NCBI GenBank assembly: GCA_964022095.1
Contig: CAXHZO010000025.1
Location: forward strand, 1-28,371
From: an uncultured Arcobacteraceae bacterium
Lineage (GTDB): Bacteria; Campylobacterota; Campylobacteria; Campylobacterales; Arcobacteraceae
Direction of reading: 5' to 3'
Length of the DNA stretch: 28,371 nucleotides
The notes under the pieces are model-generated. The model did no database searches. It was not told the DNA's origin and was given only the letters and a program-made list of their open reading frames with translations. Within the stretch, counting starts at the first letter, position 1, and each line of letters starts with the position of its first letter. This document shows, piece by piece, positions 9,357-25,435 of the stretch. Both the position numbers and the translations under genes were made by a program.

Positions 9357-9358
9357 AT

Positions 9359-9730
9359 TTAGTTTTCCTCTTTTGTTGGATGAATTATTATTGGTTGTGG
9401 AGTTGTGGAGTTTTTTGCGTCAATAGAGTTTGATGTAAGCTCGTTGATTTTTTTTACTAAAAAAAGATACTCTTTGTTTGTAACATAATCAATTTTAGAA
9501 ATTTTTCTTAACCTTTGTGTATTCTCTTTTTTTATTATGATTTCATCTTTGATGTCTTTTATTACACCTTTTTCAATAGAATCTAACTTTTGCTTTACTT
9601 TGTTTGTTCTTTGATCAACAACTTTTTTGAATTGTTCAAAAGAACTTTTTATATCAGGTTCAATTAAACTATAAGTAATAGCATTCAAATTTAAAAAAAA
9701 TACTGGCATTAAAAAAAATATTTTTAACAT
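9359..9730 (-). CDS. Small exported coiled-coil protein (VirB5/minor-pilin-like paralog family)
   Basis: Signal peptide; motif KEYLFLVKKINELTSNSID shared with four other small ORFs. Confidence 0.55.
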   Translation of the reverse strand: MLKIFFLMPVFFLNLNAITYSLIEPDIKSSFEQFKKVVDQRTNKVKQKLDSIEKGVIKDIKDEIIIKKENTQRLRKISKIDYVTNKEYLFLVKKINELTSNSIDAKNSTTPQPIIIHPTKEEN

Positions 9731-9732
9731 AT

Positions 9733-10077
9733 TTAATCCTTTAGAGTATTAAAAATATTTAAGTAAGTAGTTGAGTCATTTAGAGACTTTGTATCTACTA
9801 ATATATTTTCAAGTTGAATTTTTTTGTTTATTAAAAAGGTATGATTCCTTGATTTTAAGTTACGATATTTACCAATTTTTAATGTGACATTTAAATCTTC
9901 TAGTTCATTTGTATATATATTATTTGCTGTTGATAGTATATTTTTTGTTGGAGATATAATATCTTTCATTTTTGATGCAGAAGCATTTGGTATTTGGGTT
10001 ACTGTATAATTTTGTATAATAATAGGCATAGAAAATAGACTACTTGTAATTGTAGTCAATACAAAGAGTTTTTTCAT
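9733..10077 (-). CDS. Small exported protein (same paralog family)
   Basis: Signal peptide MKKLFVLTTITSSLFS; motif NHTFLINKKIQLENILVD. Confidence 0.55.
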   Translation of the reverse strand: MKKLFVLTTITSSLFSMPIIIQNYTVTQIPNASASKMKDIISPTKNILSTANNIYTNELEDLNVTLKIGKYRNLKSRNHTFLINKKIQLENILVDTKSLNDSTTYLNIFNTLKD

Positions 10078-10463
10078 TTTATATTACTTAGAGAGTTTTT
10101 TATTGTTTTAGTTGAACTTGAGTCTATTTCTATCTCTTTTAGTTTATTCCCTTTTTTTAGTTCAAAAACTATTTCAGAAGATATAACATCTTCCAAATAT
10201 TGTATTTTTGCTCCATCTTCAATTAATTTTGCAGAATTATTTTCAAAGTTTTGATAATAACTTTGCATTTTATTTGCTATATCCATAAATTCATTTAACA
10301 TTTTTTGATCATTATTATTATAATTCATTTTTCCATCATTTATATAGTTTGGTACACTCGTAGCTGCATCAATACAACCACATGAAGCGTATAGGTTTTG
10401 TACGATTAAGAAGTTTAATGAAATAAAAGAAGCAAATTTAATTAACATAATTATCAATCTCAT
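10074..10463 (-). CDS. Small exported protein with CxC motif (same paralog family)
   Basis: Signal peptide then SCGC; motif EIVFELKKGNKLKEIEID; start may be ATG 10448. Confidence 0.55.
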   Translation of the reverse strand: MRLIIMLIKFASFISLNFLIVQNLYASCGCIDAATSVPNYINDGKMNYNNNDQKMLNEFMDIANKMQSYYQNFENNSAKLIEDGAKIQYLEDVISSEIVFELKKGNKLKEIEIDSSSTKTIKNSLSNIK

Positions 10464-11529
10464 TCATGGCAGATGATTCATCAAAAGATGATTTCATAAT
10501 TACAGCTTTTTTAGCAGATAAATCAATAATATCTTGTCTGATTTTTACTTCGGTGTCTATTATAGAATTTATATATGATTCTCTGGCTTGTTGTTTTCTT
10601 ATTATCATTGCATATTTAGGTTTTACAGCATCTTTGTATAAATTAAGTGTTTGTTGTGTTGGTACTGCTAAATCGCTACTTTCAGCAAGTAGTTGCTTGT
10701 ATATACCTTTTTTTGTTCTGCTAGTTTTTTCTACAATTTCTTTAAGATCACTTGCGTATTGACTTGCCGTATTATTTGCATTATCTTGATTCTGTTCATC
10801 TGTATATGATGTTAATTGTGATGATAAAACGGATGATATAGTATTTGAAGAGCTTACTAAAATATCACTACTAATAGAAGATGATAGTTCATTAACTTGC
10901 TGCTCATAGGCAATCATATCTTCTGCTACTTTTATGTCACTAGGCTTTATTTCTGTAACTTTTGTAACTTTTTTTACTTTTGCTAAATCTATTAAGTATT
11001 TAGCTGTTTGTTGATGAAATTTTTCTTTTGATGATAGGTACATTGCTGTTATACTTTCATTTTTTTTATTATCTAAGTCGGTTAAGTCTAGAATCGGCTC
11101 ATCCCCTCTATAGAAATCTTCTTTTGTATAACCATTTGGATACGTAATTGAATCTTCTAATTCATTTTCAACTGACCATATTTCAGCATTTGAAGTAACA
11201 CTTTCAAGTTTTTGATTAATAGTTTTTTTACAGTAATCTTGTAATGATTCAGTACCAAAGCCTATTGTTTCAGTTTGTGATTTTTTATTTAAAAAAGGGA
11301 TATTTGGCATTTTTTGACAAATATCTAGACTTTCACTAATTTGAAAATTTAAAGCATCACACATTCCACCTAAATTTGGAGTTGAAATGTTAGGTTCGTA
11401 ACACATTTGTGCAGCTTTTGTGACAGGACTTTCTCCCAAAAGTGAGTTGATTGTATTTGAAAAAAGACTATTAAAGTCAAATGCAAATAATGATTTTGTT
11501 AGCAATAAAGATAATATTAGTTTTTTCAT
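10438..11529 (-). CDS. Exported T4SS-associated protein, Cys-rich N-terminus and helical C-terminus (possible pilus-tip/VirB5-like)
   Basis: 363 aa, signal peptide, four Cys, coiled C-terminus; overlaps both neighbours. Confidence 0.5.
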   Translation of the reverse strand: MKKLILSLLLTKSLFAFDFNSLFSNTINSLLGESPVTKAAQMCYEPNISTPNLGGMCDALNFQISESLDICQKMPNIPFLNKKSQTETIGFGTESLQDYCKKTINQKLESVTSNAEIWSVENELEDSITYPNGYTKEDFYRGDEPILDLTDLDNKKNESITAMYLSSKEKFHQQTAKYLIDLAKVKKVTKVTEIKPSDIKVAEDMIAYEQQVNELSSSISSDILVSSSNTISSVLSSQLTSYTDEQNQDNANNTASQYASDLKEIVEKTSRTKKGIYKQLLAESSDLAVPTQQTLNLYKDAVKPKYAMIIRKQQARESYINSIIDTEVKIRQDIIDLSAKKAVIMKSSFDESSAMNEIDNYVN

Positions 11530-11909
11530 TTATTTTCCTGTTTTAAAATAGATTTATTTAATCTTTGAATTGATTTTAATGTATCAACATCTATAGTGAT
11601 ATTTTTATTATTAATGATTTTTGATAGTAGAAAGTTGACCTTTTTCATACTCATATTATTATATTTTCTTAGTTTAATAATTTTTTCTAATAGCTCATTT
11701 TGTTTATTTAATGATTCTTCATATTTTTGATAATTTTTTTCAGATTCATTAATACTATTGTCTAGTTTATTGTATGTAGTATTTATTTTTTGTTGATTTG
11801 CATTTGATTGTAAAATCCCTTCGTTTACACATGGAATTTTATATATACAATATGCTGAAATATTTTGTGAGAAAATTACTAAAATAAAAAAACTTAATAT
11901 AAATTTCAT
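11526..11909 (-). CDS. Small exported coiled-coil protein (same paralog family)
   Basis: ATG 11909 (MKFILSFF..., AAAAGG RBS) is preferred over 11990; YCIYKIPC; motif KKVNFLLSKIINNKNITID. Confidence 0.6.
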   Translation of the reverse strand: MKFILSFFILVIFSQNISAYCIYKIPCVNEGILQSNANQQKINTTYNKLDNSINESEKNYQKYEESLNKQNELLEKIIKLRKYNNMSMKKVNFLLSKIINNKNITIDVDTLKSIQRLNKSILKQENK

Positions 11910-11947
11910 TCGAAAATAACCTTTTGAAGACCAGAAAAGAGAGGGGA

Positions 11948-12364
11948 TTAATCCTCTCCTCCAGATCCTTGACCAAATATTCCTGTCCAAAATTCAGTTA
12001 AAACATTAAATGAATAAGTTGATTCGCCCATTAATCCAGCTCCAATAGCAGAAATAAATAGCATTGATACAACTAGACCTAGGAATGCTCCTGCCCCACC
12101 ATATCCAAGCTCTTTTGCAAAGTTTTCTTCTTGACCATTTGAATGTTTTCTAAGGTATTTCATACCCCCAAAAATTCCTACTGTTAAACCTATAATTGGT
12201 AACATCCCTATAATCCATGTACCAACTGTTCCTAATGCATTTTTAGCAGATGTATCTGCTTGACCAATTACATCGTTAAATTCTTGAAAGTTTTTTGCCT
12301 CTGTTGCTTCTGCTCCTAGTAATGCAGAAATACCTAGTACTGATAGTAGTAATAATAACCTCAT
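11948..12364 (-). CDS. VirB2-like major pilin candidate
   Basis: 138 aa; signal peptide plus two Gly-rich hydrophobic helices separated by a short charged loop; strong AAAAGG RBS. Confidence 0.55.
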   Translation of the reverse strand: MRLLLLLSVLGISALLGAEATEAKNFQEFNDVIGQADTSAKNALGTVGTWIIGMLPIIGLTVGIFGGMKYLRKHSNGQEENFAKELGYGGAGAFLGLVVSMLFISAIGAGLMGESTYSFNVLTEFWTGIFGQGSGGED

Positions 12365-12399
12365 TTTTTTCCTTTTTAATTTTTATATATACCTATTGA

Positions 12400-13029
12400 T
12401 CATATTCCAAATATGTTTTTCCAAAAGTTATTTTTTAGCTCATTAAGTGTCATTCCACTTTGTACGTGCATCCCAATATTTGCGATAGTTTCCCAAGCTG
12501 TATATACAAACAATCCAATTAGTGTATACATTGATAAACTATACAAAATATCAAAGATACTTGCATCTTTAGATTTTTTTGCAACCTTATACCCTATGAA
12601 AACTGATAATATAAATACCAGTAAGGGTAAAATTCCATAAAAATGTCTAAATATTAAATATACAGTTAGTAGTAAACTATAAGCACCTTCGCTTTGGTAT
12701 TCACCAATTGTTGCATTTGCATTTGTCATTAGTGTAGATTTATCTTCTGCATTCCAGAATATTTTTTCTAGACATTTTTCTTTGATAAAGTTTTCCTCAA
12801 TATTGTTTAGAAATATATCGATTGTTGCAAGTAAAAGTATCAGTACGATTACTGATACTAAGTGCCAACTAAATGCTTTTACAAATATTTCCATAATACT
12901 TTTGTCATTATTTCCTTGTTTATCTTTATAAATACCAGAAATTATTCCACTAGCAAAAGGAATAGTTGTAAAAGCAAATGATACAAGGGCTACAAATGTA
13001 CTAAATACAATTAGTTTACTACCGTCCAC
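12400..13029 (-). CDS. Polytopic membrane protein resembling a tandem duplication of the pilin-like unit
   Basis: GTG start with AAGGAG RBS; about four TMs; the C-terminal half aligns with 11948-12364 (FWKNIFG vs FWTGIFG). Confidence 0.55.
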   Translation of the reverse strand: MDGSKLIVFSTFVALVSFAFTTIPFASGIISGIYKDKQGNNDKSIMEIFVKAFSWHLVSVIVLILLLATIDIFLNNIEENFIKEKCLEKIFWNAEDKSTLMTNANATIGEYQSEGAYSLLLTVYLIFRHFYGILPLLVFILSVFIGYKVAKKSKDASIFDILYSLSMYTLIGLFVYTAWETIANIGMHVQSGMTLNELKNNFWKNIFGI

Positions 13030-13054
13030 TTTTCTCCTTTGAAAAAACTTTTAA

Positions 13055-13063
13055 ATTATATCA
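13055..13063 (-). promoter_or_regulatory. Extended -10 promoter (TGATATAAT) for the pilin/VirB6 operon
   Basis: TGnTATAAT 25 bp upstream of GTG 13029 with an AT-rich upstream region, typical of Campylobacterota RpoD promoters. Confidence 0.6.
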
Positions 13064-13102
13064 TAATTTTATTAATTAATAACAAAATAATACTTTAATT
13101 TA

Positions 13103-15490
13103 TTAATTACTAACTTGTTTTTTTATTTTATTTGGATTTGTTGTGAAGTATTCAATTTCTTTGTTCTTATAAATTAGACTCATGTTTATTACTCCTTTGT
13201 TATACCAAATAACTAAATTATATTGTTTTACTTTCTGCATAGTTGTTAATACTTTTTTAGGGGCTTTAAATTCTGTTCCAATATAAGAAATTAAATCTTC
13301 TTTTTGATCTGGAGGAAATAGAAATATTCTTGTATTTATATTTTTAAAGATTGTATATGGCACTTCTTCAATATTTTGAATAATAAACATCATGTGAATA
13401 TTGTATTTTCTCGCTTCATAAACTAATTTTTCAAACATAACTTGAAATGTTTTAAATCTAAAGTAGTTTGAAGCTTCTTCAATAACATAAATTAGTTTTG
13501 GCAAAACTCTTCCTTGTTTTTTGAAGTTCAATGCTCTTTCTCTATCTTTAATATAAGATTTCCAAAATATACCAAAGAACATTGGTACAAAGAGACTACT
13601 TTCTTTTATGTTGTTAAGTTCTGCATAAATATATGCAGTCTCAGATATCTTTAGGTTGTCATATTCACTAAAGTATTCTAGGCTTTCTACATCTGATAGT
13701 TTTTCATATAAATTACTGTATCCTTCCCTTTCCTTATTACTAATTTGCTGATTGGTTTTTCTGATATTTGCAATTTTTATTACATCATTTAACAATGGTA
13801 CTTTTAAATGATTATATTTTTCTTCTTTTATATCAATCAGTTTATCACCATCTTGATATCCTAAGTTTAATAATTCATTATATAAAGGTAAAAATTTGTG
13901 TCTAAGTTTTCTAATTTTGAACTGTTGGAATTCTTTTGTTTTATAAATATACTTTACTATCTCTTTAAATTTACCAACCTCTTGAATAGTTAGTCCTGCA
14001 CTTTGACCTAAAGTGTCTTTATTTTGACTTTCAAGAATCATTGATATTAAGTCTGATGAGAATTGTATATCTTCTACAATTGGTTCTCCATTTAAATCTG
14101 TTTCAAAATTTAATAAGTTGAAAGAAAAATCTTTTAGTTTACCTTTAATTTCACCTATATTATTTTTTTCACATTTAGAAATTAAATTAAATATCGGCCT
14201 ATCACTTTCTCCTATATCAAAATTCCTTATTCCATATTTATGACTTTCTAAACCTAGTTTAGGTGCATATCCTGAATCAAAATCAATTTCAATCATTTGG
14301 GATAATATTTTTTGTTTAGCAACTGACTTACCACTACCTGTAGGGGCAATAATTAAAGAGTGAGGGTTGTCATTATCAGAAGCAAAAGAAAAGTTAACGT
14401 GAGATTTTTTTGTATCTTCACCAAAGAAGTCAGGATCTTTTGATGCTTTTTTATGAACCGAAGTTATTCTTTCATTTAAATAGGATATATTTGCTGGCAT
14501 ATCAAATCGTGTGTCTCTAAATTTTAAAGGGGTTTTTAATATTGAAGTATTAATTCTATTTTTCTTTTTTGTGAAACTTACTGAAAGAATTTCAGATATT
14601 TTATTTAATGTACTGTTTGATAAGTCTTTTGCAGCAATTTCAAAATTAACTGTGATTACTTTTTCTGTAACTTTTTCAATATTGTCTAGATATTGTACAA
14701 AAGGATCTTTACCCCCATATAATTTAGTTGTTTCAAGTAAGTTTTGAGCCATAAATAATGATCTGTCTTTATTAAAATCGTAATATGCCCAGATTACTCC
14801 ATTAAAATCTAGTTCATATAGTGCATTATAATTTATTTTTTGTTTAGATTGTTTGATTTTATATCCATTATAAATATCAATTGATGATAGGTTTTGATAC
14901 ATATTATTTTTAATGACTTTATTAAATGTTTGTTCTACTGGGAGGTAAGATACTGTAGTGTCTTCTCCAATATTTAATTGTCTGTGTATCTGCTTATTTT
15001 TTATATAAAATGAATTATCTAGAAATAAATCAAATAAAACATCAACTATCTCTTTTCCTTTTAGTAACTTTATATCTAAACTTTTTGATATTATTTCTAA
15101 TAAGTCTTTCGAGTAAGAAAATAAATATTGTTTTTGATAATTTTTATCTTTTAGTATAGCTTGATAGAAGTATCCCTTAGGAGTTTTTGATGCAAATTCA
15201 TATAAAGTATCAAGCATGTTTTCTGATAAAGGTTGTTCTATAGTATCATTTCCACTTAATTCTATAGCATAAAGTGTTTTATGAAGAGTATTTACTTCTA
15301 TATAATCATGATTAATTGCAAGAACTTTTAATGAGTCTTTTATATTTTGTTTGTTTAAAAACATATTGCTTGGAACTAATAGTTTATCATAAATACAAGA
15401 AGAAAAATTAAGGTTTTTATTCTTTCTTTTTATTCCATAGTATCCTGCTGCGGCTACTCCCGAACCAAGTAAAAATGTTAGAAAGCTCAT
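13103..15490 (-). CDS. virB4: VirB4-family T4SS ATPase
   Basis: 795 aa; HSLIIAPTGSGKS (Walker A), IYVIEEA (Walker B), EARKYNIHMMFIIQ and NINTRIFL motifs of VirB4/HerA-FtsK ATPases; located in the T4SS cluster. Confidence 0.85.
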   Translation of the reverse strand: MSFLTFLLGSGVAAAGYYGIKRKNKNLNFSSCIYDKLLVPSNMFLNKQNIKDSLKVLAINHDYIEVNTLHKTLYAIELSGNDTIEQPLSENMLDTLYEFASKTPKGYFYQAILKDKNYQKQYLFSYSKDLLEIISKSLDIKLLKGKEIVDVLFDLFLDNSFYIKNKQIHRQLNIGEDTTVSYLPVEQTFNKVIKNNMYQNLSSIDIYNGYKIKQSKQKINYNALYELDFNGVIWAYYDFNKDRSLFMAQNLLETTKLYGGKDPFVQYLDNIEKVTEKVITVNFEIAAKDLSNSTLNKISEILSVSFTKKKNRINTSILKTPLKFRDTRFDMPANISYLNERITSVHKKASKDPDFFGEDTKKSHVNFSFASDNDNPHSLIIAPTGSGKSVAKQKILSQMIEIDFDSGYAPKLGLESHKYGIRNFDIGESDRPIFNLISKCEKNNIGEIKGKLKDFSFNLLNFETDLNGEPIVEDIQFSSDLISMILESQNKDTLGQSAGLTIQEVGKFKEIVKYIYKTKEFQQFKIRKLRHKFLPLYNELLNLGYQDGDKLIDIKEEKYNHLKVPLLNDVIKIANIRKTNQQISNKEREGYSNLYEKLSDVESLEYFSEYDNLKISETAYIYAELNNIKESSLFVPMFFGIFWKSYIKDRERALNFKKQGRVLPKLIYVIEEASNYFRFKTFQVMFEKLVYEARKYNIHMMFIIQNIEEVPYTIFKNINTRIFLFPPDQKEDLISYIGTEFKAPKKVLTTMQKVKQYNLVIWYNKGVINMSLIYKNKEIEYFTTNPNKIKKQVSN

Positions 15491-16425
15491 AGTGATTCCT
15501 TTTTAGAAATATATTGATTACTTAAGTAATCTAAGTTTACTAATAAATCCCAGTCTACATCCCTATATTTTAGAGGCGTTTTAAGTAAGATGTCTTTGTT
15601 GTCTATAGACTTTTTCACTAAAGATAAATTGTATATATCTGATATTTCATTTAGTTCATTTTTTGTAATATCTTTTGATATTAGAATATGGTTTGTTAGG
15701 ATTAAGTCTTGATGCTCTTTGTCAATATCATAGTTATAAAGTTTTTTTGAGATGTATCCATCTACTCTACCTTCATAAAAATCATAATAGCTCCAAACTG
15801 TACATTGGATATTTGTTTTTAATAGTTTATTATATATGTCTTTTACCGCTCCCTCTTTTGCTTTGTACCCTTGGTAGATTTCATAGTTTGATACAATGTT
15901 TTGTTTTTTATCTTCTAGATTATTTTTTGATAGTTTGTTTATTTCGTAAGGAGTAATAAATATTAAATTATTTAAAATAGTATTTGATTCTTGACCAGTT
16001 TTTAGCTCACTATCTGTCTCTTTTTGAATGTCATTAATTAAGTCAAGAGAATAAGATAAAATGAAATGCTGTTGCTTAGTCTTATTTTTTAATATAGTTT
16101 GAAAGAAAGCTCCATTTGTATTTGTAGAGTGTGTTTTAAATAAATTAATAAAAAAAGCTTCATTTATACTTTTGGAATCAAAAATTTCTAAAATAAAAAT
16201 CTCTTTTTTTTGAGTGTTTATTATTAAACTATTTTTTTTAATAAAATCTATAATTAATATATCGTTTGGATTCCAAAGTTTTCTTAATGAAGTAAAAGGT
16301 AGTAGAAGTTTCTCAATAATACAATTTGATTCAGGCAATAGTATTTTTTTATATTTAATTAAATATAAACCTCTAAAAATAATTATAGATAAGACTAGAG
16401 TAATAATAATTGTTCCAATATACAT
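15487..16425 (-). CDS. ATPase-less paralog of the VirB4 N-terminal domain
   Basis: Aligns with the VirB4 N-terminal half: GAFFQTILKNK/GYFYQAILKDK, SYSLDL/SYSKDL, VWSYYDF/IWAYYDF, LKTPLKYRD/LKTPLKFRD; stops before Walker A. Confidence 0.75.
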   Translation of the reverse strand: MYIGTIIITLVLSIIIFRGLYLIKYKKILLPESNCIIEKLLLPFTSLRKLWNPNDILIIDFIKKNSLIINTQKKEIFILEIFDSKSINEAFFINLFKTHSTNTNGAFFQTILKNKTKQQHFILSYSLDLINDIQKETDSELKTGQESNTILNNLIFITPYEINKLSKNNLEDKKQNIVSNYEIYQGYKAKEGAVKDIYNKLLKTNIQCTVWSYYDFYEGRVDGYISKKLYNYDIDKEHQDLILTNHILISKDITKNELNEISDIYNLSLVKKSIDNKDILLKTPLKYRDVDWDLLVNLDYLSNQYISKKESL

Positions 16426-16427
16426 GT

Positions 16428-17009
16428 TTATATCCCAAAACTTTTAGAAAATGCTTTTTTAAATTTTGTATAGTAAGGATAACTATTTCTATGTTTTGTA
16501 CCATAGTTATAACATTCAATTGTTTTTTTTATATCTTTTTTCATTTTTAAGCAAGACTTTAGAACTTTAGAACTTTTTAGTAAGTTATATTTAGGATCAA
16601 ATATATAATCAATCTCTTCTAATTTAAAATTAGTTGTGTTAATTTGAGTTAGTCCAACATCAAAGCTAAAGTTTTGTTTTTTAAATGCTGTAGCAAGTGC
16701 TTTTGCATACAAAAGGTTTTTGGGATAAAAACTTATAATCCATTTATTTTTATTGTATTTGTATTCACTTGCTATAATCTTTATATTTGGATTTTGTATT
16801 TGTTTAAATTGAAGAGCATTTTCTTTTGATGTTGTCATACAAATAGCAAAAGGTTTAAAGTTACTTTCTATTTTTGCTATTGTATAAAGAATTCTTTGAT
16901 CTATATTTTCTCTTAATGCAATTTCCTTTATTGCCTTTGCAATATCAGTATTATCAAAAGCAAAAAGAAAATTATGCATTAGTAAGATAGTTAAAATGTT
17001 TTTTTTCAT
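16428..17009 (-). CDS. virB1: VirB1-like lytic transglycosylase (SLT)
   Basis: Signal peptide; IAKIESNF (catalytic Glu), DVGLTQIN and YN motifs. Confidence 0.88.
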   Translation of the reverse strand: MKKNILTILLMHNFLFAFDNTDIAKAIKEIALRENIDQRILYTIAKIESNFKPFAICMTTSKENALQFKQIQNPNIKIIASEYKYNKNKWIISFYPKNLLYAKALATAFKKQNFSFDVGLTQINTTNFKLEEIDYIFDPKYNLLKSSKVLKSCLKMKKDIKKTIECYNYGTKHRNSYPYYTKFKKAFSKSFGI

Positions 17010-17770
17010 TATTTAACTACTACGCCAATTTTAAAGTTTTTGATTATTAATCCATAAGGATTTAATTCAGTAGATTCTGCAAGATCAACATATCCTTTAA
17101 CTTCTATAGGAACAACACCCCTTTTTTCATATTTTGAATCTTTTGATAAATCATAGTTTACTGTTCCAACTGAAACATTTACTTTTATCGAGAAACTATT
17201 TTGGTTAAACTTGAAGTACTCAACTTTATAATTATTAATAGTTATAAATTCTGGCATTTTGTCTTCACCTAACATTGATTGAAGTTTAAATAAATATGTT
17301 CTTAAGTCTTTTTGTGACTCTTTATTCTTTTTAGACATTAAATCTTGATAAATAAATTGTAATTTATAAGAGTTTGCAATTACATCGCTTGGTGAAGTAA
17401 ATTTATTAACTTTAAAATTATCAGTAATTTCTGATCTACTAACTATAAAGTTCTCAACTAAAGTTTTTGCTAACCATTTTTCAATAAATTTAGCTTCTAA
17501 TTTAGTCTTTTTTACTTTGATACTTCTTCCATCTACTGTTGTCATTATTGTATATAGATTATTGGTATATACTGTATCTTTTAAATCTTCTATTGCAGAG
17601 GCTGTTTTTTCTAGTACATAAAGGGCATAGAATGTTATTCCTATACTAACTATTGCGATTACAAACCAATTTTTAGCAAAAATTCTTTCTGCTTTAAATG
17701 CTAGTGTTTCATCTTCAGTGAATTCTTTTTTTATTGTTTTTTTATTATCTGATTGACTTTCAGTACTCAT
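17009..17770 (-). CDS. virB8: VirB8-like bitopic inner-membrane protein
   Basis: N-terminal TM, 253 aa, C-terminal LNPYGLII (VirB8 NPxG motif). Confidence 0.75.
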   Translation of the reverse strand: MSTESQSDNKKTIKKEFTEDETLAFKAERIFAKNWFVIAIVSIGITFYALYVLEKTASAIEDLKDTVYTNNLYTIMTTVDGRSIKVKKTKLEAKFIEKWLAKTLVENFIVSRSEITDNFKVNKFTSPSDVIANSYKLQFIYQDLMSKKNKESQKDLRTYLFKLQSMLGEDKMPEFITINNYKVEYFKFNQNSFSIKVNVSVGTVNYDLSKDSKYEKRGVVPIEVKGYVDLAESTELNPYGLIIKNFKIGVVVK

Positions 17771-17778
17771 GATTTCCT

Positions 17779-18414
17779 CTATCTACAAAAACTAGTAAAC
17801 TGTACACAAAAGTTTTTTTTCTCTTGTTTTGTAAAGAAAATTACTTCATAGTTATATTTATTTTCCACATACGCAATATTTGCATTGTTTAAAAGATTTC
17901 TATTCTTACTAGATTTTTTTACTTTTAAAGTGGATTTTTTAAAATTTTTATCAACTTTATCTGGAAGAATTTCAGAATAAGTATCTCTATTACTTAAATA
18001 AACCGAGTTCTTTTCATTTAAATCAGATTCTTTAGTAGTTGAATTTACTTGTTTATGGTATAAAGTAGGTAAAGAATCAAATTCTTTAAAAATATCTTCT
18101 ATATTTAGTTCTCTCTGTATTTTTGAGGGAACTACTACAATTTTCATTGAACCATCAGAATCTAGTTGTTGATATACTTGAGGTGCAGTTAACTTTTTTT
18201 CGTGAATTAAATATTTTCCAATTTCATATGCCTTAATTCTATCTTTATACGCAGATAATATTTTTTTGGCATCTTTAAATGCTTCTTCTTGTCCTTTTAA
18301 TAAGCCTTTTTGATAGCCATTTTCATATCCTCTATCATAATAAAAATCTTCACTATCTCCTGCGAATAGAATACTTGAAGAAACTATAAGGCTACTTAAT
18401 AAAATTTTTTTCAT
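17779..18414 (-). CDS. Exported T4SS-associated hypothetical protein
   Basis: Signal peptide, GYENGYQKG repeat, C-terminal Cys pair. Confidence 0.6.
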   Translation of the reverse strand: MKKILLSSLIVSSSILFAGDSEDFYYDRGYENGYQKGLLKGQEEAFKDAKKILSAYKDRIKAYEIGKYLIHEKKLTAPQVYQQLDSDGSMKIVVVPSKIQRELNIEDIFKEFDSLPTLYHKQVNSTTKESDLNEKNSVYLSNRDTYSEILPDKVDKNFKKSTLKVKKSSKNRNLLNNANIAYVENKYNYEVIFFTKQEKKNFCVQFTSFCR

Positions 18415-18416
18415 CT

Positions 18417-19448
18417 CTATTTTCCTTTTGTAGTATTAGATATTTTGTTGTGTCTAATATTGTTGTTACTTGTGTCTTTTGTTGTGTAGTTTTTTATATT
18501 TACATTGTTTTCTGTAGTATTATCTAAGGACATTTCTTTAGGATTAACATACAAGTCTATATATAGTTTACTACCCTTTATAATTTGATATAAATAGGGT
18601 AAATCGGCTTTATACACATCTGCAAATGCTTTTACTGTTCCAGCAATAATATCTATAGCTCCTTTAACAATATAGTCTTTTGCCTCGGGTCTTTCTGTAT
18701 TTGTAGTTACGACAGGTTGTGTTATAACAGTACCAGATCCTGAGTTTACAGTATTACTATCTCCAGTTGAAGCTTTTTGTTCTACTTTACTCGCTTCAAG
18801 TTGATCTAAATAGTCATTAGACCCATCTTTTACTGCAATTGCAGTATTCCCTGTCGCTTCAAGTGCAAGTTTTTCTAGTTTTCTATTATTTACGTAAGTT
18901 GCTACATTATAAGAACTTCTAGATTCGTTTAGAATTTTTGCATTTTCAATTTTATATTTTTTATTGTTTTTTTCAATATGTAGCCCTGTTACAAATAGTG
19001 TTTCAAGTTGATTGTGTGGAACATAATTACCAAAGAATTTAATGGATCCAATATTTGTTGTACAAATTAAATTTGCAGACATAGGTTGTTTCCCAATATC
19101 AACAGTATCTTCGACAATACAATAACCTTTTACGCTTACATAATTTGTTACTGTATCTCCATCATCATTATTATTAATTTCTTCTTCTTTTTCAGTAACA
19201 ATAAGTCTTTTTTCTCCATCTATTGCTGCAAAACTTGCATGGCTTCTTATATAATGGTAGTTTAAAAGTATTTCTTTTTCATAATTATATATTTTTTCTT
19301 TTTCTCTTTGGGGAAAAGCTCCATCTAATTCTATAACATTAGATTTTCCCTCTCCTGATGTTTTAATAATATTTTGTTGTATCGAATTCTGAGAATATAG
19401 ATAAATAGGAGTAATTATTAAACTAATAAAAATAGATATATTTTTCAT
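18417..19448 (-). CDS. VirB10/TrbI-like outer-membrane core protein (divergent)
   Basis: Beta-rich region followed by two amphipathic helices and a terminal strand PYLYQIIKGSKLYIDL, resembling the VirB10 antenna and last strand; cluster context. Confidence 0.45.
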   Translation of the reverse strand: MKNISIFISLIITPIYLYSQNSIQQNIIKTSGEGKSNVIELDGAFPQREKEKIYNYEKEILLNYHYIRSHASFAAIDGEKRLIVTEKEEEINNNDDGDTVTNYVSVKGYCIVEDTVDIGKQPMSANLICTTNIGSIKFFGNYVPHNQLETLFVTGLHIEKNNKKYKIENAKILNESRSSYNVATYVNNRKLEKLALEATGNTAIAVKDGSNDYLDQLEASKVEQKASTGDSNTVNSGSGTVITQPVVTTNTERPEAKDYIVKGAIDIIAGTVKAFADVYKADLPYLYQIIKGSKLYIDLYVNPKEMSLDNTTENNVNIKNYTTKDTSNNNIRHNKISNTTKGK

Positions 19449-19449
19449 A

Positions 19450-19749
19450 TTAATACCTTTTCTTATCTAATTCGTAACCTATATTCCATAAGTTATTTGT
19501 TTTTTTTATTACTTTATTTGTTTTATTAGTATGAACTCTTTTTTCTATTCCATTATTAAACTCTTTTACAATATATTTTTCAAACTCTTTTTTAATATCA
19601 TTATTTAAATAATATCTCTTCTCTTCAATCTTTTCAGGAATTACAATCTTTTCTTCTTCTGGAATTTTATTTGTTTGGTATTTACTTGTACATCCAGTGA
19701 AAGATATAATTGAAAAAGAGATTATCAAAAGTAAATTTTTTTTATTCAT
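19450..19749 (-). CDS. Small lipoprotein, VirB7-like
   Basis: Lipobox FTGC, 99 aa, adjacent to the VirB10-like gene. Confidence 0.55.
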   Translation of the reverse strand: MNKKNLLLIISFSIISFTGCTSKYQTNKIPEEEKIVIPEKIEEKRYYLNNDIKKEFEKYIVKEFNNGIEKRVHTNKTNKVIKKTNNLWNIGYELDKKRY

Positions 19750-19762
19750 TTTTTACCTTTCT

Positions 19763-20545
19763 TTATTTTGCTACATCAGCTAAGTCTATAAATAAATTTG
19801 TGTTATAAACTTTTTGGAATAATTCACCTTCATTTGTTTTGTATACCCCACCTTTTTTAAAGATTGTCCCTTTAGAATAAGTGTTATATTCCATAAATAA
19901 ATCAGATTGAAAACATTTTCCTGAAATATTCTTACACTTATTTATTGAATCTTTTTTATAATCATATTTGTAAATCATTGCTTTATTTTTTAGTTTAAAA
20001 TATTTAAAAGTTTTTTTGATCTTCTTTGTATTTGATGATTTTTCTTTTTCAAGTCTTATTTGTAACGGAGTTTCATATTTTTTTACATAAGTTATGTCTA
20101 AATTACTAGTAACATCAGTAATTACATTATCAAATGTTTTTGAGAATAAAATTGGATATGTTTCTATCTTCCCATTTGTTAGTTCTTCAACTTTTAAACT
20201 TACTGGGTATTTAGACTCTAGTATTCTTTTTAATTCTATTGCATCAGGTTTTCGATCAAAAGAATCAATTAATAAAAATTCTTTTGTAATTAAGCTATTT
20301 ATATTTTCTTTAGCTAGTAAATGTTGAAAATATAGAATATCACTTGTTGGGATATTATTAATATTCATTGTAACAATATATGGGCTATCAAGTTGTATGA
20401 CTTTAGGTTGATATCCCTCATTTTTTAATTGGTAGTCAACAGTTTCTAGACCTATTGAAAACCCTTTTTTAAAACTTTCTAGTTCATTTGCAAAAATATT
20501 ACTCGCTAGTCCTAAACTAATTAATAGCATATATGCTTTATTCAT
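19763..20545 (-). CDS. Exported hypothetical protein of the T4SS cluster
   Basis: Signal peptide, 260 aa; possible SPOR-like segment (DSFDRKPDAIELKRIL). Confidence 0.55.
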   Translation of the reverse strand: MNKAYMLLISLGLASNIFANELESFKKGFSIGLETVDYQLKNEGYQPKVIQLDSPYIVTMNINNIPTSDILYFQHLLAKENINSLITKEFLLIDSFDRKPDAIELKRILESKYPVSLKVEELTNGKIETYPILFSKTFDNVITDVTSNLDITYVKKYETPLQIRLEKEKSSNTKKIKKTFKYFKLKNKAMIYKYDYKKDSINKCKNISGKCFQSDLFMEYNTYSKGTIFKKGGVYKTNEGELFQKVYNTNLFIDLADVAK

Positions 20546-20563
20546 TTTATTTCCTTTTTTGTG

Positions 20564-21217
20564 TTATTTATAAAATCTTAAATTATAATAATAATTATTG
20601 TTTATCTTAAATCTAATTTTTTTATTGTAAATATTAATAACTTTAAAATCTCCAAATTTATCATTTTCTTCAAAGTTGTTTTTTTTATATGAAAATGATT
20701 TTTGTTTAGGATCAATTGATATTTGACTTTTTATGTTTTTAAGATCTGCAATTGTTTTAATTGTTATTTGTTCATTAACTGTTTTTACAATTTCTACAGC
20801 AGGTTCGTTTTTTTTATCAGTTATTTTTTTTATTACTTTATCTATTTCTTTTTCACTTATATTATCTTCTCTTGATATATCTTCTAATTCTATCTCTGTT
20901 ACAATAGGCTCTTTTATCTTTTCTATTGGTGTATTTGAGAGATTTTTTACTGGTGAAACTATATTTTGTTTTTTCTTTTCTATAGTTTCTTTTAAAGGTA
21001 TTATTTCCTCATTAGTTGTTGATGTGGTATCGCTTAGTTTTGTTTGTATTGCAAGATTTGTTTTTTTTTCCTTAATGATTTTTGGTGTTTCTTCTTTTTT
21101 CTTCTCTTGAATTTGCTCTAAATTTTTATCTATATTTATTTTTCTTGCAATAACAAAAATAATAAATAAAATAAAAATTGAAACAAAACCTATTTTTAAG
21201 TATTTTTTTTTATTCAT
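20564..21217 (-). CDS. Bitopic membrane protein with charged low-complexity linker and small beta C-terminal domain
   Basis: One N-terminal TM, K/E-rich middle; 217 aa. Confidence 0.6.
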   Translation of the reverse strand: MNKKKYLKIGFVSIFILFIIFVIARKINIDKNLEQIQEKKKEETPKIIKEKKTNLAIQTKLSDTTSTTNEEIIPLKETIEKKKQNIVSPVKNLSNTPIEKIKEPIVTEIELEDISREDNISEKEIDKVIKKITDKKNEPAVEIVKTVNEQITIKTIADLKNIKSQISIDPKQKSFSYKKNNFEENDKFGDFKVINIYNKKIRFKINNNYYYNLRFYK

Positions 21218-21225
21218 GTTTCATC

Positions 21226-21978
21226 CTATTTATATACTATACCGTTATCAATTCGGTATTTATTTCCATTAACAAAAATATTTCCATAGTCATTATCTTT
21301 AACTATTCTGTATACTGTGTCTGCAATATATAAATAATTGTACTTTTCAGTTGGATATTTTTTATATTCTTTAACATATGCTTGAATTACTTCTATATCA
21401 CTCATTGGTTTAATATCTTGATATGAATATACTGTATTTAAAACTTCACTTCTTATTTCATTTTTATCAAATCTCTTAACCATTAAATTTAAAATCTTAT
21501 TTTGCTCTTTCTGTGAATAAACAATTACTAAATTTCCTCTATCAAAATTATTAGCTACATCAATAGTTAGCATATTCTGATCGAATAATATTTTTTCAAA
21601 CATTTTTCCTCTAGCAAATGAAATCACACTTCCTTTGGGCAATAATATTGTAGTAGTATAGTAAGGGTGAATAGCTATACTTTCTTGTGAAGAGATACTT
21701 TTAACTACAGGTTTTTGATTTACACTTATATTGTCAAACTTATCTAACAGATGGGTATTTGATTTGTCTTTTTTTTGCACCTGTTTCATTTTATTTGGAT
21801 TAATATCTAAATAGAATTTGTTTATTTTCAAATCATCAATATTTTCTTTTGATTTAGTTCTTGCTGACTTCTCTTCTGGTAAACTAAAGTTACTTGGGCT
21901 TAGTGGACTGGTCTGTGAGCCCTTTTCTAAAGCGAATAAAGAGATAGATAGTAAACAAAATATTAATATTTTTTTCAT
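21226..21978 (-). CDS. VirB9/TraK-like exported core protein (divergent)
   Basis: Signal peptide; SIAIHPYYTTTILLPKG resembles the VirB9/TrbG N-domain motif (I..xpgy.T.i.l). Confidence 0.5.
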   Translation of the reverse strand: MKKILIFCLLSISLFALEKGSQTSPLSPSNFSLPEEKSARTKSKENIDDLKINKFYLDINPNKMKQVQKKDKSNTHLLDKFDNISVNQKPVVKSISSQESIAIHPYYTTTILLPKGSVISFARGKMFEKILFDQNMLTIDVANNFDRGNLVIVYSQKEQNKILNLMVKRFDKNEIRSEVLNTVYSYQDIKPMSDIEVIQAYVKEYKKYPTEKYNYLYIADTVYRIVKDNDYGNIFVNGNKYRIDNGIVYK

Positions 21979-22469
21979 TTTTCCTCCTTGGTTTTTGTGA
22001 TAGCATATGCTACGAGTTTATTGTCTTCGTATACTTCAAATTGTTTTCTAAAAAATAGATCCATTATCAATTCAATTACAAAAAAACTGATTAAACAGTA
22101 TTTTATGAAAAGGGGAAATAATAATATATTGTAAAAGAAAAAGATCAGTATTGATGACAGAATTGTAATTGGTACTATAATTTTGTAGTTATTAAATATA
22201 TAAAATATTAAGATATATAATGGTGATAATAATATTATAACTTCAAGATTTAGTATTTCTTTTATTGATATAATTAAAGATAAAAGTAGTATAGAGGGGA
22301 AATATTTAATTATAAAGAAGTTAATTCTGATTTTTTTATTTGAAACGAGCTTTAATTCTTTTAATTTTGTTTTTATTTTAATAGTATCATTTTTATGTGA
22401 TAGAACTTCTACATTTCTTCTAAAGAAGAACCATAAAAAAAAGATATATTTAGAAAAATTTATTATCAA
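21975..22469 (-). CDS. Small polytopic membrane protein
   Basis: TTG start with GAGG RBS, several hydrophobic helices, ATGA overlap with the next gene. Confidence 0.6.
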   Translation of the reverse strand: MIINFSKYIFFLWFFFRRNVEVLSHKNDTIKIKTKLKELKLVSNKKIRINFFIIKYFPSILLLSLIISIKEILNLEVIILLSPLYILIFYIFNNYKIIVPITILSSILIFFFYNILLFPLFIKYCLISFFVIELIMDLFFRKQFEVYEDNKLVAYAITKTKEEK

Positions 22470-22564: not shown

Positions 22565-23698
22565 TTATATTTCAAGGAATAACTCTCTTTGTCCGATCAT
22601 AGCATTGATACCATCTTTTGCTGTTTTTATTATAGGTATTACCGAATCCACAACATCTATAATTATTTCTTCTGTAATTTGACCTCTGGCCATTTGCTTA
22701 AATTCTAATAGTTTGAAAAATGTTTCAATTTCACTTGGAGAGTATGGAAATCGATTTGCCTGAGCATTTTCTTTTAGATACTTGTCTTCAATGATATTAA
22801 TGATATCATCAACATTACATATATTAAATATAGATTCTAAGTTGAATTTTTTAGCATATAGCTTAATAATATCTTTTGCTGCATTTATATTGGGAATATT
22901 TATAAAAAACAACTCATCAAATCTTCCTCTTCTAAGAAATTCAGGATTGTTGTCAAGTATACTGCTAAGATTGTTAGCAGTTGCTATGTATAAAATATCT
23001 AAGTCTTTATATTTTGATGTTTCTGTATGCATTTCATTTAATAAGGTTAAAAAAGCACCCAAGATTTGTTTTTCTGCTGGAGATTGATTTCCTATCATCT
23101 TTTCAATTTCATCTAGTAAGATTATAAACTTATCATTTTTAAAATTATTGAGATAAGTATGTATTTTATCTAGTTCGGCAATAGGTTCATTTTTTGTGAG
23201 AATATCACTTAAATTTAAAAATACTAGTTTTCTTTCTGTCTCTCCAGCAAAGCATTTTGCAAAAAATGTTTTTCCTGTACCTGGTATTCCGGCAAGTAAT
23301 ATTGCTTTTACTTTATACCCTTTTTTTGAAGCAATAAGGTAGTCTTTTGTCCATTGTTTTAATCCAAATGCTCCACCAATGTCATTTATTGAATAACTAG
23401 AATTAACAATAGTAATCCCTAGTCTTTTTTCTAGGGCTTGAGAGCTTGTAATACCTAGTTGATGCTCTTGAGTTGTAAGGGCCCCATAAACACTATTAAT
23501 TTTTACTTGAGGAATAATAGATTCATATTTTTTTGGTACATCATAAGGTGCAATAAATATTGTATGAGAGTTTATGTTTTTTTTTATATCTTCTTCTGCT
23601 GGAAATAAAATGATTTCTTTTTTTTGATAAATTGATAAAAACTCATTGTATTTTTCATTATTGTAGTAGGTTACTTCTTCTACTTGTAGCCAAATCAT
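22565..23698 (-). CDS. Classical AAA+ ATPase (Ycf46/SpoVK-like)
   Basis: GIPGTGKT (Walker A), ILLDEIEK (Walker B), ATAN (sensor 1), PEFLRRGRFDELFF (second region of homology). Confidence 0.88.
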   Translation of the reverse strand: MIWLQVEEVTYYNNEKYNEFLSIYQKKEIILFPAEEDIKKNINSHTIFIAPYDVPKKYESIIPQVKINSVYGALTTQEHQLGITSSQALEKRLGITIVNSSYSINDIGGAFGLKQWTKDYLIASKKGYKVKAILLAGIPGTGKTFFAKCFAGETERKLVFLNLSDILTKNEPIAELDKIHTYLNNFKNDKFIILLDEIEKMIGNQSPAEKQILGAFLTLLNEMHTETSKYKDLDILYIATANNLSSILDNNPEFLRRGRFDELFFINIPNINAAKDIIKLYAKKFNLESIFNICNVDDIINIIEDKYLKENAQANRFPYSPSEIETFFKLLEFKQMARGQITEEIIIDVVDSVIPIIKTAKDGINAMIGQRELFLEI

Positions 23699-24344: not shown

Positions 24345-24800
24345 TTAACCTATAGCCTGAATACTAGAGTTAGAATTGTTAGTTTCATTATTTTGTGAAG
24401 ATTGAGCAAAAGAGGGCTTGTATTCTTCTTGGGAGTTAAAAGAGTCTAAATTAAAATTAGGATTAATTTGAATACTAAATATCTCAGTAGAAGATAAAGA
24501 ATTGCCTTCGTTAGAAATAACCTTATCTTGATACTGAGAAATAAATTGTTTGCAATAGTTATTTTCAAAAGAACTAGACAAATCAGTACTAGATAATAAA
24601 GTAAGCTTGTCTTGTGTAGTATCTAAAGAATTGATTTGAGTAAAAAGATTATTTATATTTTCTAATTTTTCTTCTTTGTTAGATTCAAAATCATTGATGT
24701 ACTCATTAACTATAGTTTCAAAATCTTCTAACCCTTTCATATCTAAAGAGGCTCTAATGCTATTTAGATCTAGTTGTCTAGCAGCCTCATATGTAGCATC
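24345..24800. repeat. Repeat A copy 2 (shared effector C-terminal domain)
   Basis: Matches 1163-1612. Confidence 0.92.
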
Positions 24801-25433
24801 AACTCTTATTCCTTGAGTTGTAGGATTATCTATATAATATTTGGTTTCTTCAAAGAATCCTTTTAAATCTTCTTTTGTTATATCACCATTTGCTGTAAGG
24901 GTATCTGACATTTTATTTATTAGTGCTGCTGATGATGAACTATTTAAAGATAATCCATATTGATTATGATAATCTGCAAGCATCAACTTTTCTCCATCTG
25001 ATAGTTCAGTATTTAGCCTTGTCTCAACATTATCTATATGCTCTGTTATTTCATTAACAGCTTTTATAAAATCTTCATTTATTTTTTCTTTTCCATAGTC
25101 TGAACTTAGTGCTTGATTAATTTCATTTATTGTCTCAGAAGATAAAGAAGTTGAATCTCTAGCTACAGTTAAGTCATCCTCAATATTTAAATAATATTGT
25201 GTTCCATATTCATTATCTAAAATATCTTTTATTAAAGCTCTTCCATCACTATTAACTGATAAATCATATTGATGTGCTCCAAAAGACCATCCTGAGTTTC
25301 CTGTTCCTGCATGAGATAGCATATACCCATCTGAAACACCTCCTAACTCATTTTTTACTAAATTCTCTGCAACAGCATATTTATAATCATCTGTTATATT
25401 GTCTAATCCTTCAAAGTTTTGCCATGTAGCCAT
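24345..25433 (-). CDS. Putative peptidoglycan-hydrolase (lysozyme-like) effector with conserved C-terminal domain
   Basis: NELGG...NSGWSFGAHQYDL resembles the Glu...SG.SFG..Q motif of lysozyme-fold antibacterial effectors; also LADYHNQYG. C-terminus is repeat A; no signal peptide. ATG 25433 has a GGAGG RBS. Confidence 0.68.
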   Translation of the reverse strand: MATWQNFEGLDNITDDYKYAVAENLVKNELGGVSDGYMLSHAGTGNSGWSFGAHQYDLSVNSDGRALIKDILDNEYGTQYYLNIEDDLTVARDSTSLSSETINEINQALSSDYGKEKINEDFIKAVNEITEHIDNVETRLNTELSDGEKLMLADYHNQYGLSLNSSSSAALINKMSDTLTANGDITKEDLKGFFEETKYYIDNPTTQGIRVDATYEAARQLDLNSIRASLDMKGLEDFETIVNEYINDFESNKEEKLENINNLFTQINSLDTTQDKLTLLSSTDLSSSFENNYCKQFISQYQDKVISNEGNSLSSTEIFSIQINPNFNLDSFNSQEEYKPSFAQSSQNNETNNSNSSIQAIG

Positions 25434-25435
25434 AA

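Follow-up and report, generated by a model that had tools for sequence, protein, structure and literature searches.

The window analysed here, a stretch of 28,371 nucleotides, is the entire contig C25 of the genome of an uncultured Arcobacteraceae bacterium (genome G000; 2.57 Mb in 31 contigs, 99.99% complete), and nearly every long open reading frame (ORF) in it lies on the minus strand. Our subject is a C-terminal protein segment, hereafter the tail, encoded at 24345-24800 on the minus strand as the final 151 residues of ORF 24345-25451(-), a lysozyme-like protein of 368 aa when read from TTG, for which the ATG at 25433 is the likelier start, giving 362 aa as in the database protein P0002. 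Sequence comparisons indicate that the tail belongs to a previously unnamed C-terminal domain family of ~125 residues. This domain is strictly C-terminal, has spread as a module onto unrelated toxins and is confined to islands encoding a type IV secretion system (T4SS). In genome G000, six proteins with unrelated N-terminal domains end in it (lysozyme-like, glycine-zipper, RTX, lipase, Tle1-like and a truncated TseH-like protein), all copies lie in one chromosomal island together with T4SS genes, and no tail-bearing ORFs were found in this genome outside that island. The tail and its carriers in the window and on contig C29 are:

24345-24737, minus strand: type A tail of the lysozyme-like effector, ~129 aa, helical core and N/S-rich disordered end (...SSIQAIG), from BLASTP, alignment and AlphaFold2 model
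24345-25451, minus strand: lysozyme-like effector without signal peptide, N-domain of the VgrG3_C/GH46 kind via its relative P0007 (Atlas lead)
1163-2566, minus strand: 467-aa glycine-zipper effector (glycine zipper sub-threshold) with a type A tail at 1163-1552 (BLASTP)
2-562, minus strand: N-terminal 187 aa of a TseH-like effector (putative cell-wall hydrolase); the contig ends at the repeat start and the full form is P0005
25941-27893, minus strand: 650-aa RTX-repeat effector (PF00353, E 7e-14), its last ~110 aa (25941-26273) forming a type B tail (hhalign)
C29:2149-3930: 593-aa Tle1-type phospholipase (PF09994, E 3.8e-18, above the Pfam cut-off) with a type B tail

A C-terminal domain shared by unrelated toxins

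The original prediction, that the lysozyme-like and glycine-zipper ORFs share near-identical C-termini behind unrelated N-termini, was borne out by BLASTP, which aligned the two tails with 109 identities in 129 positions (84%, E 8e-60) and returned no alignment of the N-terminal parts. The two copies are 87.9% identical in DNA across 462 nt, and when the whole genome was searched with the tail, contig C4 yielded another close copy, the third, which terminates a 485-aa GHSLGG lipase (C4:950-2407). Over a 94-codon tail core the lysozyme-like copy shows 0 nt differences from the lipase copy and 4 nt from the glycine-zipper copy, with no synonymous changes among them, and repeat DNA among the copies retains 88-98% identity across 357-462 nt. 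The truncated ORF 2-562 halts exactly at the start of the shared sequence, it matches the lipase gene at every one of its last 55 nt, and its full-length form P0005 (325 aa) carries a type A tail. In the sequencing run that most probably yielded the genome, unitig depth over 24398-24689 (210-446 versus 106-108 in the flanks), although such depth is not a copy number, is consistent with a multi-copy repeat. Far beyond chance resemblance, the shared tail is a recently spread DNA repeat, and its near-identity within the genome reflects recent recombination or gene conversion.

The third tail, at the end of the RTX ORF 25941-27893, had been proposed as a diverged version of the same domain. Pairwise BLASTP was marginal (33% over 61 aa, E 0.001; E 0.003 in a second comparison), the tail search of the genome returned it at E 0.09, and a hidden Markov model (HMM) of six close tails detected neither type B tail of the genome (RTX and Tle1-like) at E<10 among 15,078 six-frame ORFs. 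A profile including the RTX tail led to the 593-aa protein on contig C29, whose tail is intermediate between the types. Together with this Tle1-like tail and an orphan in genome G103, the RTX tail makes up a type B group, supported by their alignment, by tblastn of the RTX tail against C29 (E 1.4e-6) and by profile A1 (E 1.6e-7 and 2e-7). Comparison of type A with type B by hhalign gave 94.9% probability and E 4.6e-8 over 109 collinear columns ending at the last residue. On the strength of the two intermediates, tblastn and hhalign, we accept the two types as probable homologues, with the caveat of a composition bias in both groups; the proposed relationship thus stands through the mixed profile, tblastn and hhalign, and fails in the close-tail HMM.

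Alignment of 16 tails (A6) uncovered a common order of conserved motifs, namely G-I-x-x-L, E-x-N-K-E-E-K, L-x-x-L and N-x-Y-x-K-Q-L-I-x-Q-Y-Q-x-K-V-I-E-N-x-G, followed by a variable polar stretch and, in 14 of the 16, by the terminal motif [I/V/T]-Q-x-[M/I/L]-x. Every one of the 16 is acidic (net charge -4 to -14), and N, S, Q and T account for 40-67% of the final 30 residues in each. Consistent with the predicted layout of a helical core and a polar tail, an AlphaFold2 model of the tail (7-sequence alignment, mean pLDDT 70) places helices at residues 24-38, 42-57, 62-71 and 81-96 (pLDDT 80-94) ahead of a disordered end of ~36 residues (pLDDT 31-39). Foldseek found nothing in the PDB for this model at E<=0.001 (best E 2.7), and VIA-align returned generic helical bundles alone (Z<=6.9, for a model from 7 sequences); a Legionella effector fragment bound to the DotL complex (7bwk_J) was dismissed as a fold neighbour, its Z of 4.9 being at noise level. 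Pfam gave no consistent family match to the 16 tails, and the XVIPCD family (PF20410), the T4SS tag to which the tail had been compared, matched 0 of 16 even at E<=1 and none of the full-length tail-bearing proteins at E<=0.01.

To survey the family more widely, we searched a protein database of 1.84 billion representatives with HMMER (E<=0.001), for which 150 of 160 matches were listed. The search profile (A5, 356 positions) contained the lysozyme N-domain of P0007 as well as the tail, and 131 of the 150 listed matches were to the N-domain. Leaving aside P0007 itself, a whole-profile match, 18 listed matches were to the tail, 16 of which end no more than 2 residues from the C-terminus, as had been expected of a terminal domain on diverse toxins; the match in P0070 stops 9 residues short, and an internal match in the repetitive surface protein P0101 was judged spurious. 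On inspection, P0017 and P0019 proved to be without a tail. The tail-bearing members carry N-domains of at least seven kinds, including Tle1, lipase, TseH-like, glycine-zipper, LysM-containing and unknown ones, and some members are short orphans.

At E<=1e-4, profile A6 matched two of 184 species genomes of the family (G000 and G103) and one of the 401 in a sample of the order (G000), with no matches in housekeeping proteins of either set, as predicted. Fifteen of the 184 family genomes were matched by profile A1 at E<=0.01; 13 of these matches were weak (E ~1e-3, inside long ORFs) and disappeared with A6 at 1e-4. No match to the tail was obtained from plasmids by tblastn, and a locus search with alignment A7 returned none from genome contigs and three loci from metagenome contigs.

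Toxins, neighbouring genes and secretion genes of the island

The effectors are without N-terminal signal peptides, as judged by sequence inspection, and the small genes beside them encode lipoproteins, signal-peptide proteins or polytopic membrane proteins, which we regard as putative periplasm-facing immunity proteins. Such gene pairing resembles the usual signature of contact-dependent effector/immunity pairs, and both the lipoprotein-lysozyme and the membrane protein-lipase pairs are kept in the metagenome locus L049. The genes that adjoin the effectors in the window are:

25436-25858, minus strand: 140-aa lipoprotein (lipobox ...FTGC), putative immunity, paired with the lysozyme also in L049
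27890-28369, minus strand: ankyrin-repeat protein truncated at the contig end, C-terminal part only; the full form in L049 has 412 aa and an N-terminal transmembrane segment
578-1147, minus strand: 189-aa putative lipoprotein directly upstream of the TseH-like effector, putative immunity
5086-5667: paralogue of the 189-aa lipoprotein (77% identity), putative immunity
2553-3020, minus strand: 155-aa polytopic membrane protein with no family match, putative immunity to the glycine-zipper toxin (sequence inspection)
2992-4248, minus strand: 418-aa glycine-zipper paralogue without tail and with an RTX-repeat end, 65% identical over 327 aa to the 467-aa ORF
4782-5044, minus strand: two short remnants of a membrane-fusion gene (HlyD type) of a type I secretion system (T1SS), E 8e-8 and 1e-6

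Structural look-ups in the Atlas were made with the homologues P0007 and P0095 as proxies for the window proteins. P0007, which is 52% identical to the lysozyme-like ORF, was assigned a VgrG3_C/GH46-like lysozyme fold (Atlas lead, score 0.95, TM-score 0.79), and P0095, a relative of P0005, was assigned as TseH-like (Atlas lead, score 0.95). Close neighbours of both N-domains, given as leads without alignments, are clusters with 46-68% XVIPCD carriers or named XVIPCD proteins, suggesting that elsewhere these toxin bodies are joined to XVIPCD, whose place the tail takes here. The lipase on C4 combines a Lipase_3/Mbeg1-like match at threshold with the GHSLGG motif.

Island contigs are broken at repeats and the island is incomplete in the assembly. 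Both the right end of the window (27890-28369) and C29:3-485 stop at the same point within paralogous ankyrin-repeat genes, and the ankyrin N-terminal parts (252 residues, seen in a metagenome orthologue) are on no contig of the assembly, which also lacks the second lipase copy. In L049 the full-length ankyrin protein precedes the RTX effector, of which it is possibly the immunity protein. Contig C29 holds the other island edge, in the order ankyrin protein, two secreted paralogues, tailed Tle1 effector and then dnaE. Directly downstream of the Tle1 effector, C29:3932-5266(+) encodes a 444-aa protein, polytopic in the membrane and fused to a spermidine-synthase-like domain, which may be an immunity protein or the product of an unrelated chromosomal gene.

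Secretion genes occupy most of the remaining window:

6590-22469, minus strand: co-directional cluster of ~22 genes of a T4SS-like apparatus, recognised by synteny with the metagenome locus L050 and Campylobacter plasmids
11948-12364, minus strand: 138-aa protein resembling a pilin, its weak T4SS_pilin match (E 6e-4, 20.2 bits) falling below the cut-off of 26.6
13103-15490, minus strand: 795-aa VirB4-type ATPase (AlphaFold2 model and Foldseek)
15487-16425, minus strand: 312-aa protein, encoded immediately upstream of the VirB4-type ATPase and paralogous to its N-terminal domain (34% identity, E 1e-23)
16428-17009, minus strand: SLT lytic transglycosylase, VirB1-like (E 4e-13)
22565-23698, minus strand: 377-aa classical AAA+ ATPase (PF00004), conserved in the T4SS family (L050:5907-7037; L052:6881-7996; a C. 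jejuni plasmid version)
23710-24332, minus strand: two small genes of 105 and 102 aa, whose counterparts in L050 lie between the coupling-protein and AAA+ genes

Most genes of the 6590-22469 cluster, which includes a 769-aa polytopic protein at 7047-9356, encode signal peptides or transmembrane segments and almost none has a Pfam or NCBIfam match; the remaining ~18 apparatus genes gave no family match when pilin and VirB6/8/9/10-type roles were looked for. The sequence profile of the 795-aa ATPase reaches only the HerA/FtsK level, whereas its AlphaFold2 model (14 sequences, pLDDT 80) resembles full-length R388 TrwK/VirB4 (Foldseek E 4e-19, TM-score 0.53) better than HerA (only E 1e-10, TM-score 0.3-0.4), so that the model supports a VirB4-fold ATPase. 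No VirB11/DotB-type ATPase was recognised in the island, which is unusual for a T4SS.

A single TraG-D_C coupling protein (T4CP) was found in the genome, at C4:3109-5004, where it adjoins the lipase/immunity array 6 kb from chromosomal genes (TraG-D_C, 40 bits, cut-off 22; TrwB_AAD_bind, 24.4 bits, cut-off 20.5). The original prediction had named VirD4 as the receptor of the tail. The profile of the T4CP family matches IcmO/DotL of Legionella (PDB 6sz9) at E 4e-36 versus 0.0055 for TrwB, which makes the coupling protein one of the DotL/IcmO rather than the VirD4/TrwB type. Just upstream of the T4CP a 266-aa membrane protein is encoded (C4:4997-5797) that has no match in the PDB (best E 0.11). 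Pfam and NCBIfam scans of the island proteins gave no family match for DotM, DotN or IcmSW, and no MobH-type relaxase (PF07514) was found. In a 27-sequence alignment (A9), the T4CP carries a 17-residue insertion at residues 319-335 that is present in 8 of 8 Arcobacter-family and 0 of 19 Campylobacter/Helicobacter-type sequences; lying in the least conserved central region, it is a candidate contact site and no more.

Metagenome loci join the pieces that are separated in our assembly. L049 encodes a tailed Tle1, a lipoprotein, a tailed lysozyme, an immunity gene, a tailed lipase, an ankyrin protein and an RTX effector, with four tail-bearing effectors in a row. In L050 an orphan tail (106 aa, upstream of the T4CP operon), genes of 128 and 269 aa, the T4CP, genes of 102 and 100 aa, the AAA+ gene and the apparatus genes follow one another in one run, and this contiguity implies that the coupling protein belongs to the tail-associated machine.

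The tail as a candidate export tag and the alternatives

We propose, with a probability of about 0.6, that the tail is a translocation tag which directs signal-peptide-less antibacterial effectors to the T4SS of the island itself for transfer into neighbouring bacteria. None of the effectors has a signal peptide, yet the predicted targets lie in the periplasm, and export by a type VI secretion system was rejected for want of any TssC/VipB (PF05943) match in the 99.99% complete genome; a dedicated export route is therefore called for. In the mechanism proposed by analogy with XVIPCD and Dot/Icm signals, the acidic four-helix core would dock on the coupling complex (the DotL-type T4CP itself or one of its partners). 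Threading, possibly helped by the AAA+ ATPase, would be started by the disordered end, which is rich in Asn and Ser and closes with the conserved [I/V/T]-Q-x-[M/I/L]-x. The export machine would comprise the VirB4-fold ATPase, the DotL/IcmO-type coupling protein, the SLT enzyme, the pilin-like protein and the AAA+ ATPase, and the exported set a peptidoglycan hydrolase, a TseH-like hydrolase, two phospholipase kinds, a glycine-zipper membrane toxin and an RTX protein, against which the periplasm-facing lipoprotein or membrane neighbours would serve as immunity proteins.

The closest parallel is the XVIPCD of X-Tfe effectors, which is likewise a ~120-residue C-terminal module of unrelated antibacterial effectors with adjacent immunity genes, combines a folded N-terminal part with an unstructured polar tail, and sits on effectors encoded in or near the T4SS locus (PMC8740702). 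There, the folded part binds the all-alpha domain of VirD4 and both parts are needed for translocation (PMC8740702). The XVIPCD fold is alpha-alpha-beta-beta-beta (PDB 7MU9; PMC8740702), whereas the tail is all-helical in its 7-sequence AlphaFold2 model. The XVIPCD tail is Gln-rich and that of our proteins Asn/Ser-rich and acidic; the X-T4SS is VirB/VirD4-like while the island T4SS has a DotL-type coupling protein; and the hosts are Xanthomonadales, Burkholderiales and Neisseriales as opposed to Campylobacterota. The suggested likeness to XVIPCD therefore holds for the discrete C-terminal module, its confinement to T4SS islands and its layout, and does not extend to kinship; the tail is best described as a new family, analogous rather than homologous to XVIPCD, on an uncharacterised T4SS lineage.

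With the Dot/Icm (type IVB) system the island shares the DotL/IcmO-type coupling protein and C-terminal disordered acidic polar signals, which in Legionella (Glu-rich/E-block signals) are described as bound by DotM within a DotL-DotM-DotN complex (PMC5802825). The tail differs in having a folded ~90-residue domain ahead of its disordered end. Homologues of DotM, DotN or IcmS/W were not detected among the island proteins, and the apparatus genes match no Dot/Icm family. Dot/Icm moreover targets eukaryotic hosts, and the predicted targets here are bacteria. A bipartite C-terminal T4SS signal is also known from the BID domain of Bartonella Bep effectors and relaxases, a ~100-residue helical domain with a short unstructured tail. 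The BID tail is positively charged and serves a VirB/VirD4 system, whereas the tail described here is acidic and gave no BID sequence or fold match.

Several observations weigh against the tail being a T4SS tag. Most of the apparatus genes match no known T4SS family in Pfam and NCBIfam scans. The near-identity of the tails within the genome, stemming from recent recombination, is uninformative on long-term constraint. A VirB4-like protein was found in 2 of the 184 family genomes, G000 and, at 30% identity, G067, which also has a T4CP (33%) but no tail match, and the two plasmid loci read, from C. fetus and C. jejuni, encode a related T4SS and no tail; a tag would thus not be a general feature of this T4SS family. 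Conversely, G103 has a tail match and no VirB4-like or T4CP match. The prediction that tails would occur only in genomes with this T4SS accordingly held for G000 and failed once, in G103, for a 99-residue orphan fragment. This orphan (L029:9998-10297, minus strand; type B, no toxin domain) lies between housekeeping genes beside a homologue of 6590-6991, and we read it as a decayed island edge. Closer relatives of the machine (T4CP 61-79%, VirB4-like 55-82% identity) were found only in non-representative genomes and metagenomes, where tail proteins appear to share contigs with them, as judged by matching recorded contig sizes of 154,488 bp (T4CP P0159, VirB4-like P0280, tail protein P0142), 359,460 bp (VirB4-like P0281, tail proteins P0051, P0275 and P0276) and 22,322 bp (T4CP P0158, tail protein P0053); this co-location is suggestive, resting on equal size of the recorded contigs and not on their sequence. 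Finally, two tail-associated toxin families have RTX repeats and the window retains HlyD remnants, pointing to an earlier association with a T1SS.

That last point bears on an alternative in which the toxins exit via HlyB/HlyD/TolC, with the tail as their C-terminal T1SS signal. T1SS signals are C-terminal and uncleaved, as the tail is, and are short and poorly conserved, unlike a folded ~90-residue domain with family-wide motifs. RTX repeats stand upstream of the tail in the 650-aa protein and at the end of the tail-less 418-aa paralogue; they are, however, present in one of the six tail-bearing proteins of the genome (the 650-aa ORF) and missing from the other five. The HlyD remnants, one of them interrupted by a TAA, correspond to model positions 304-349 and 374-419 and lie between a 167-aa membrane-protein gene and the lipoprotein gene 5086-5667, beside the 418-aa paralogue. 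A larger HlyD C-terminal fragment lies at C4:14958-15692. The genome encodes two complete HlyB/HlyD pairs, at C4:129-133 kb and C21:0.1-3.6 kb, but both of these intact loci lie well away from the tails; no T1SS gene was seen on L049 or L050, whereas a T4CP was. The 467-aa and 418-aa glycine-zipper copies are 65% identical up to a point inside an RTX-like repeat (...EYNGGD/ATFEAA...), where the tail takes the place of the RTX end in the former. We read this pair as a T1SS-type end that may have been replaced by a T4SS tag, while conceding that it equally portrays both ends as interchangeable modules, which is compatible with T1SS export. Taken together, we judge exit by a T1SS highly improbable.

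Only marginally less remote is the option that the tail is not an export tag at all, but a receptor-binding or import module of diffusible bacteriocin-like toxins, or a self-association or regulation module. In bacteriocin families, near-identical delivery modules are joined to variable killing domains by recombination, and the tail spreads in the same manner; being envelope-acting, the toxins would have only the outer membrane to cross. Toxins of the colicin and pyocin type nevertheless have the shared delivery region N-terminal and the killing domain C-terminal, which is opposite to the present arrangement. Tails were encountered in T4SS islands only, and none of the island genes was recognised as serving lysis or release.

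A T4SS tag read by a different receptor is unlikely too, though it has more in its favour. The disordered end would then be engaged either by the 266-aa membrane protein, which occupies a DotM-like position, or by the AAA+ ATPase of the island as an FtsH/Cdc48-like unfoldase. The AAA+ gene is kept near the T4CP genes in L050 and is present in the C. jejuni plasmid cluster, yet the ATPase occurs also in tail-less plasmid systems and is thus not specific to tail-bearing islands. The tails are acidic and the T4CP is of the DotL type, for which the Dot/Icm precedent is binding of acidic C-terminal signals by DotM, not DotL (PMC5802825), but the 266-aa protein has no detectable similarity to DotM.

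Bacteria-killing T4SSs with the XVIPCD tag have so far been described for Xanthomonadales, Burkholderiales and Neisseriales (PMC8740702), and we found no literature description of a bacteria-killing T4SS with such a tag in Arcobacteraceae or Campylobacterota. Building on the T4SS-tag reading, we tentatively suggest, at somewhat worse than even odds, that marine Campylobacterota have evolved bacteria-killing T4SSs independently, as a second class to which the island belongs, namely an unclassified conjugation-type machine with a DotL-type T4CP and a dedicated AAA+ unfoldase, for which the acidic four-helix domain and C-terminal pentapeptide would be the address and to which toxins would have been re-routed from T1SS to T4SS by module swap. 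If true, T4SS interbacterial killing arose more than once, on different T4SS lineages; profile A6 would offer a simple sequence handle for mining effector/immunity pairs in this group; and the 467-aa/418-aa toxin pair would be a natural experiment on secretion-route exchange by module swapping.

Plasmid relatives and possibly mobilisable modules

Campylobacter and Helicobacter plasmids commonly carry distant homologues of the machine (VirB4 35-41%, T4CP about 48% identity). All 14 plasmids with a VirB4-type homologue, from Campylobacter, Helicobacter and Caminibacter, were typed as 'non-mobilizable' by MOB-suite, with the cluster genes annotated as hypothetical, and the T4SS family apparently escapes current typing tools. 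Should the tail prove to be a T4SS tag, this large 'dark' family would gain its first functional anchor. The C. fetus plasmid with a VirB4-type homologue also bears phage tail and capsid genes.

Elsewhere in genome G000, paralogous small modules lie among defence genes (McrBC, SbcCD, OLD) at ~59.9-63.1 kb of contig C10 and ~5.4-8.4 kb of contig C12 (L062 and L063). Since no classical VirD4 (PF02534) turned up in the genome, these modules may be mobilised in trans, perhaps by the island T4SS. Each comprises a TrbL/VirB6-like gene, a MobA/VirD2-type relaxase (TraI_middle, LPD7) and a HipA gene, with a NikA-like gene on C12 only.

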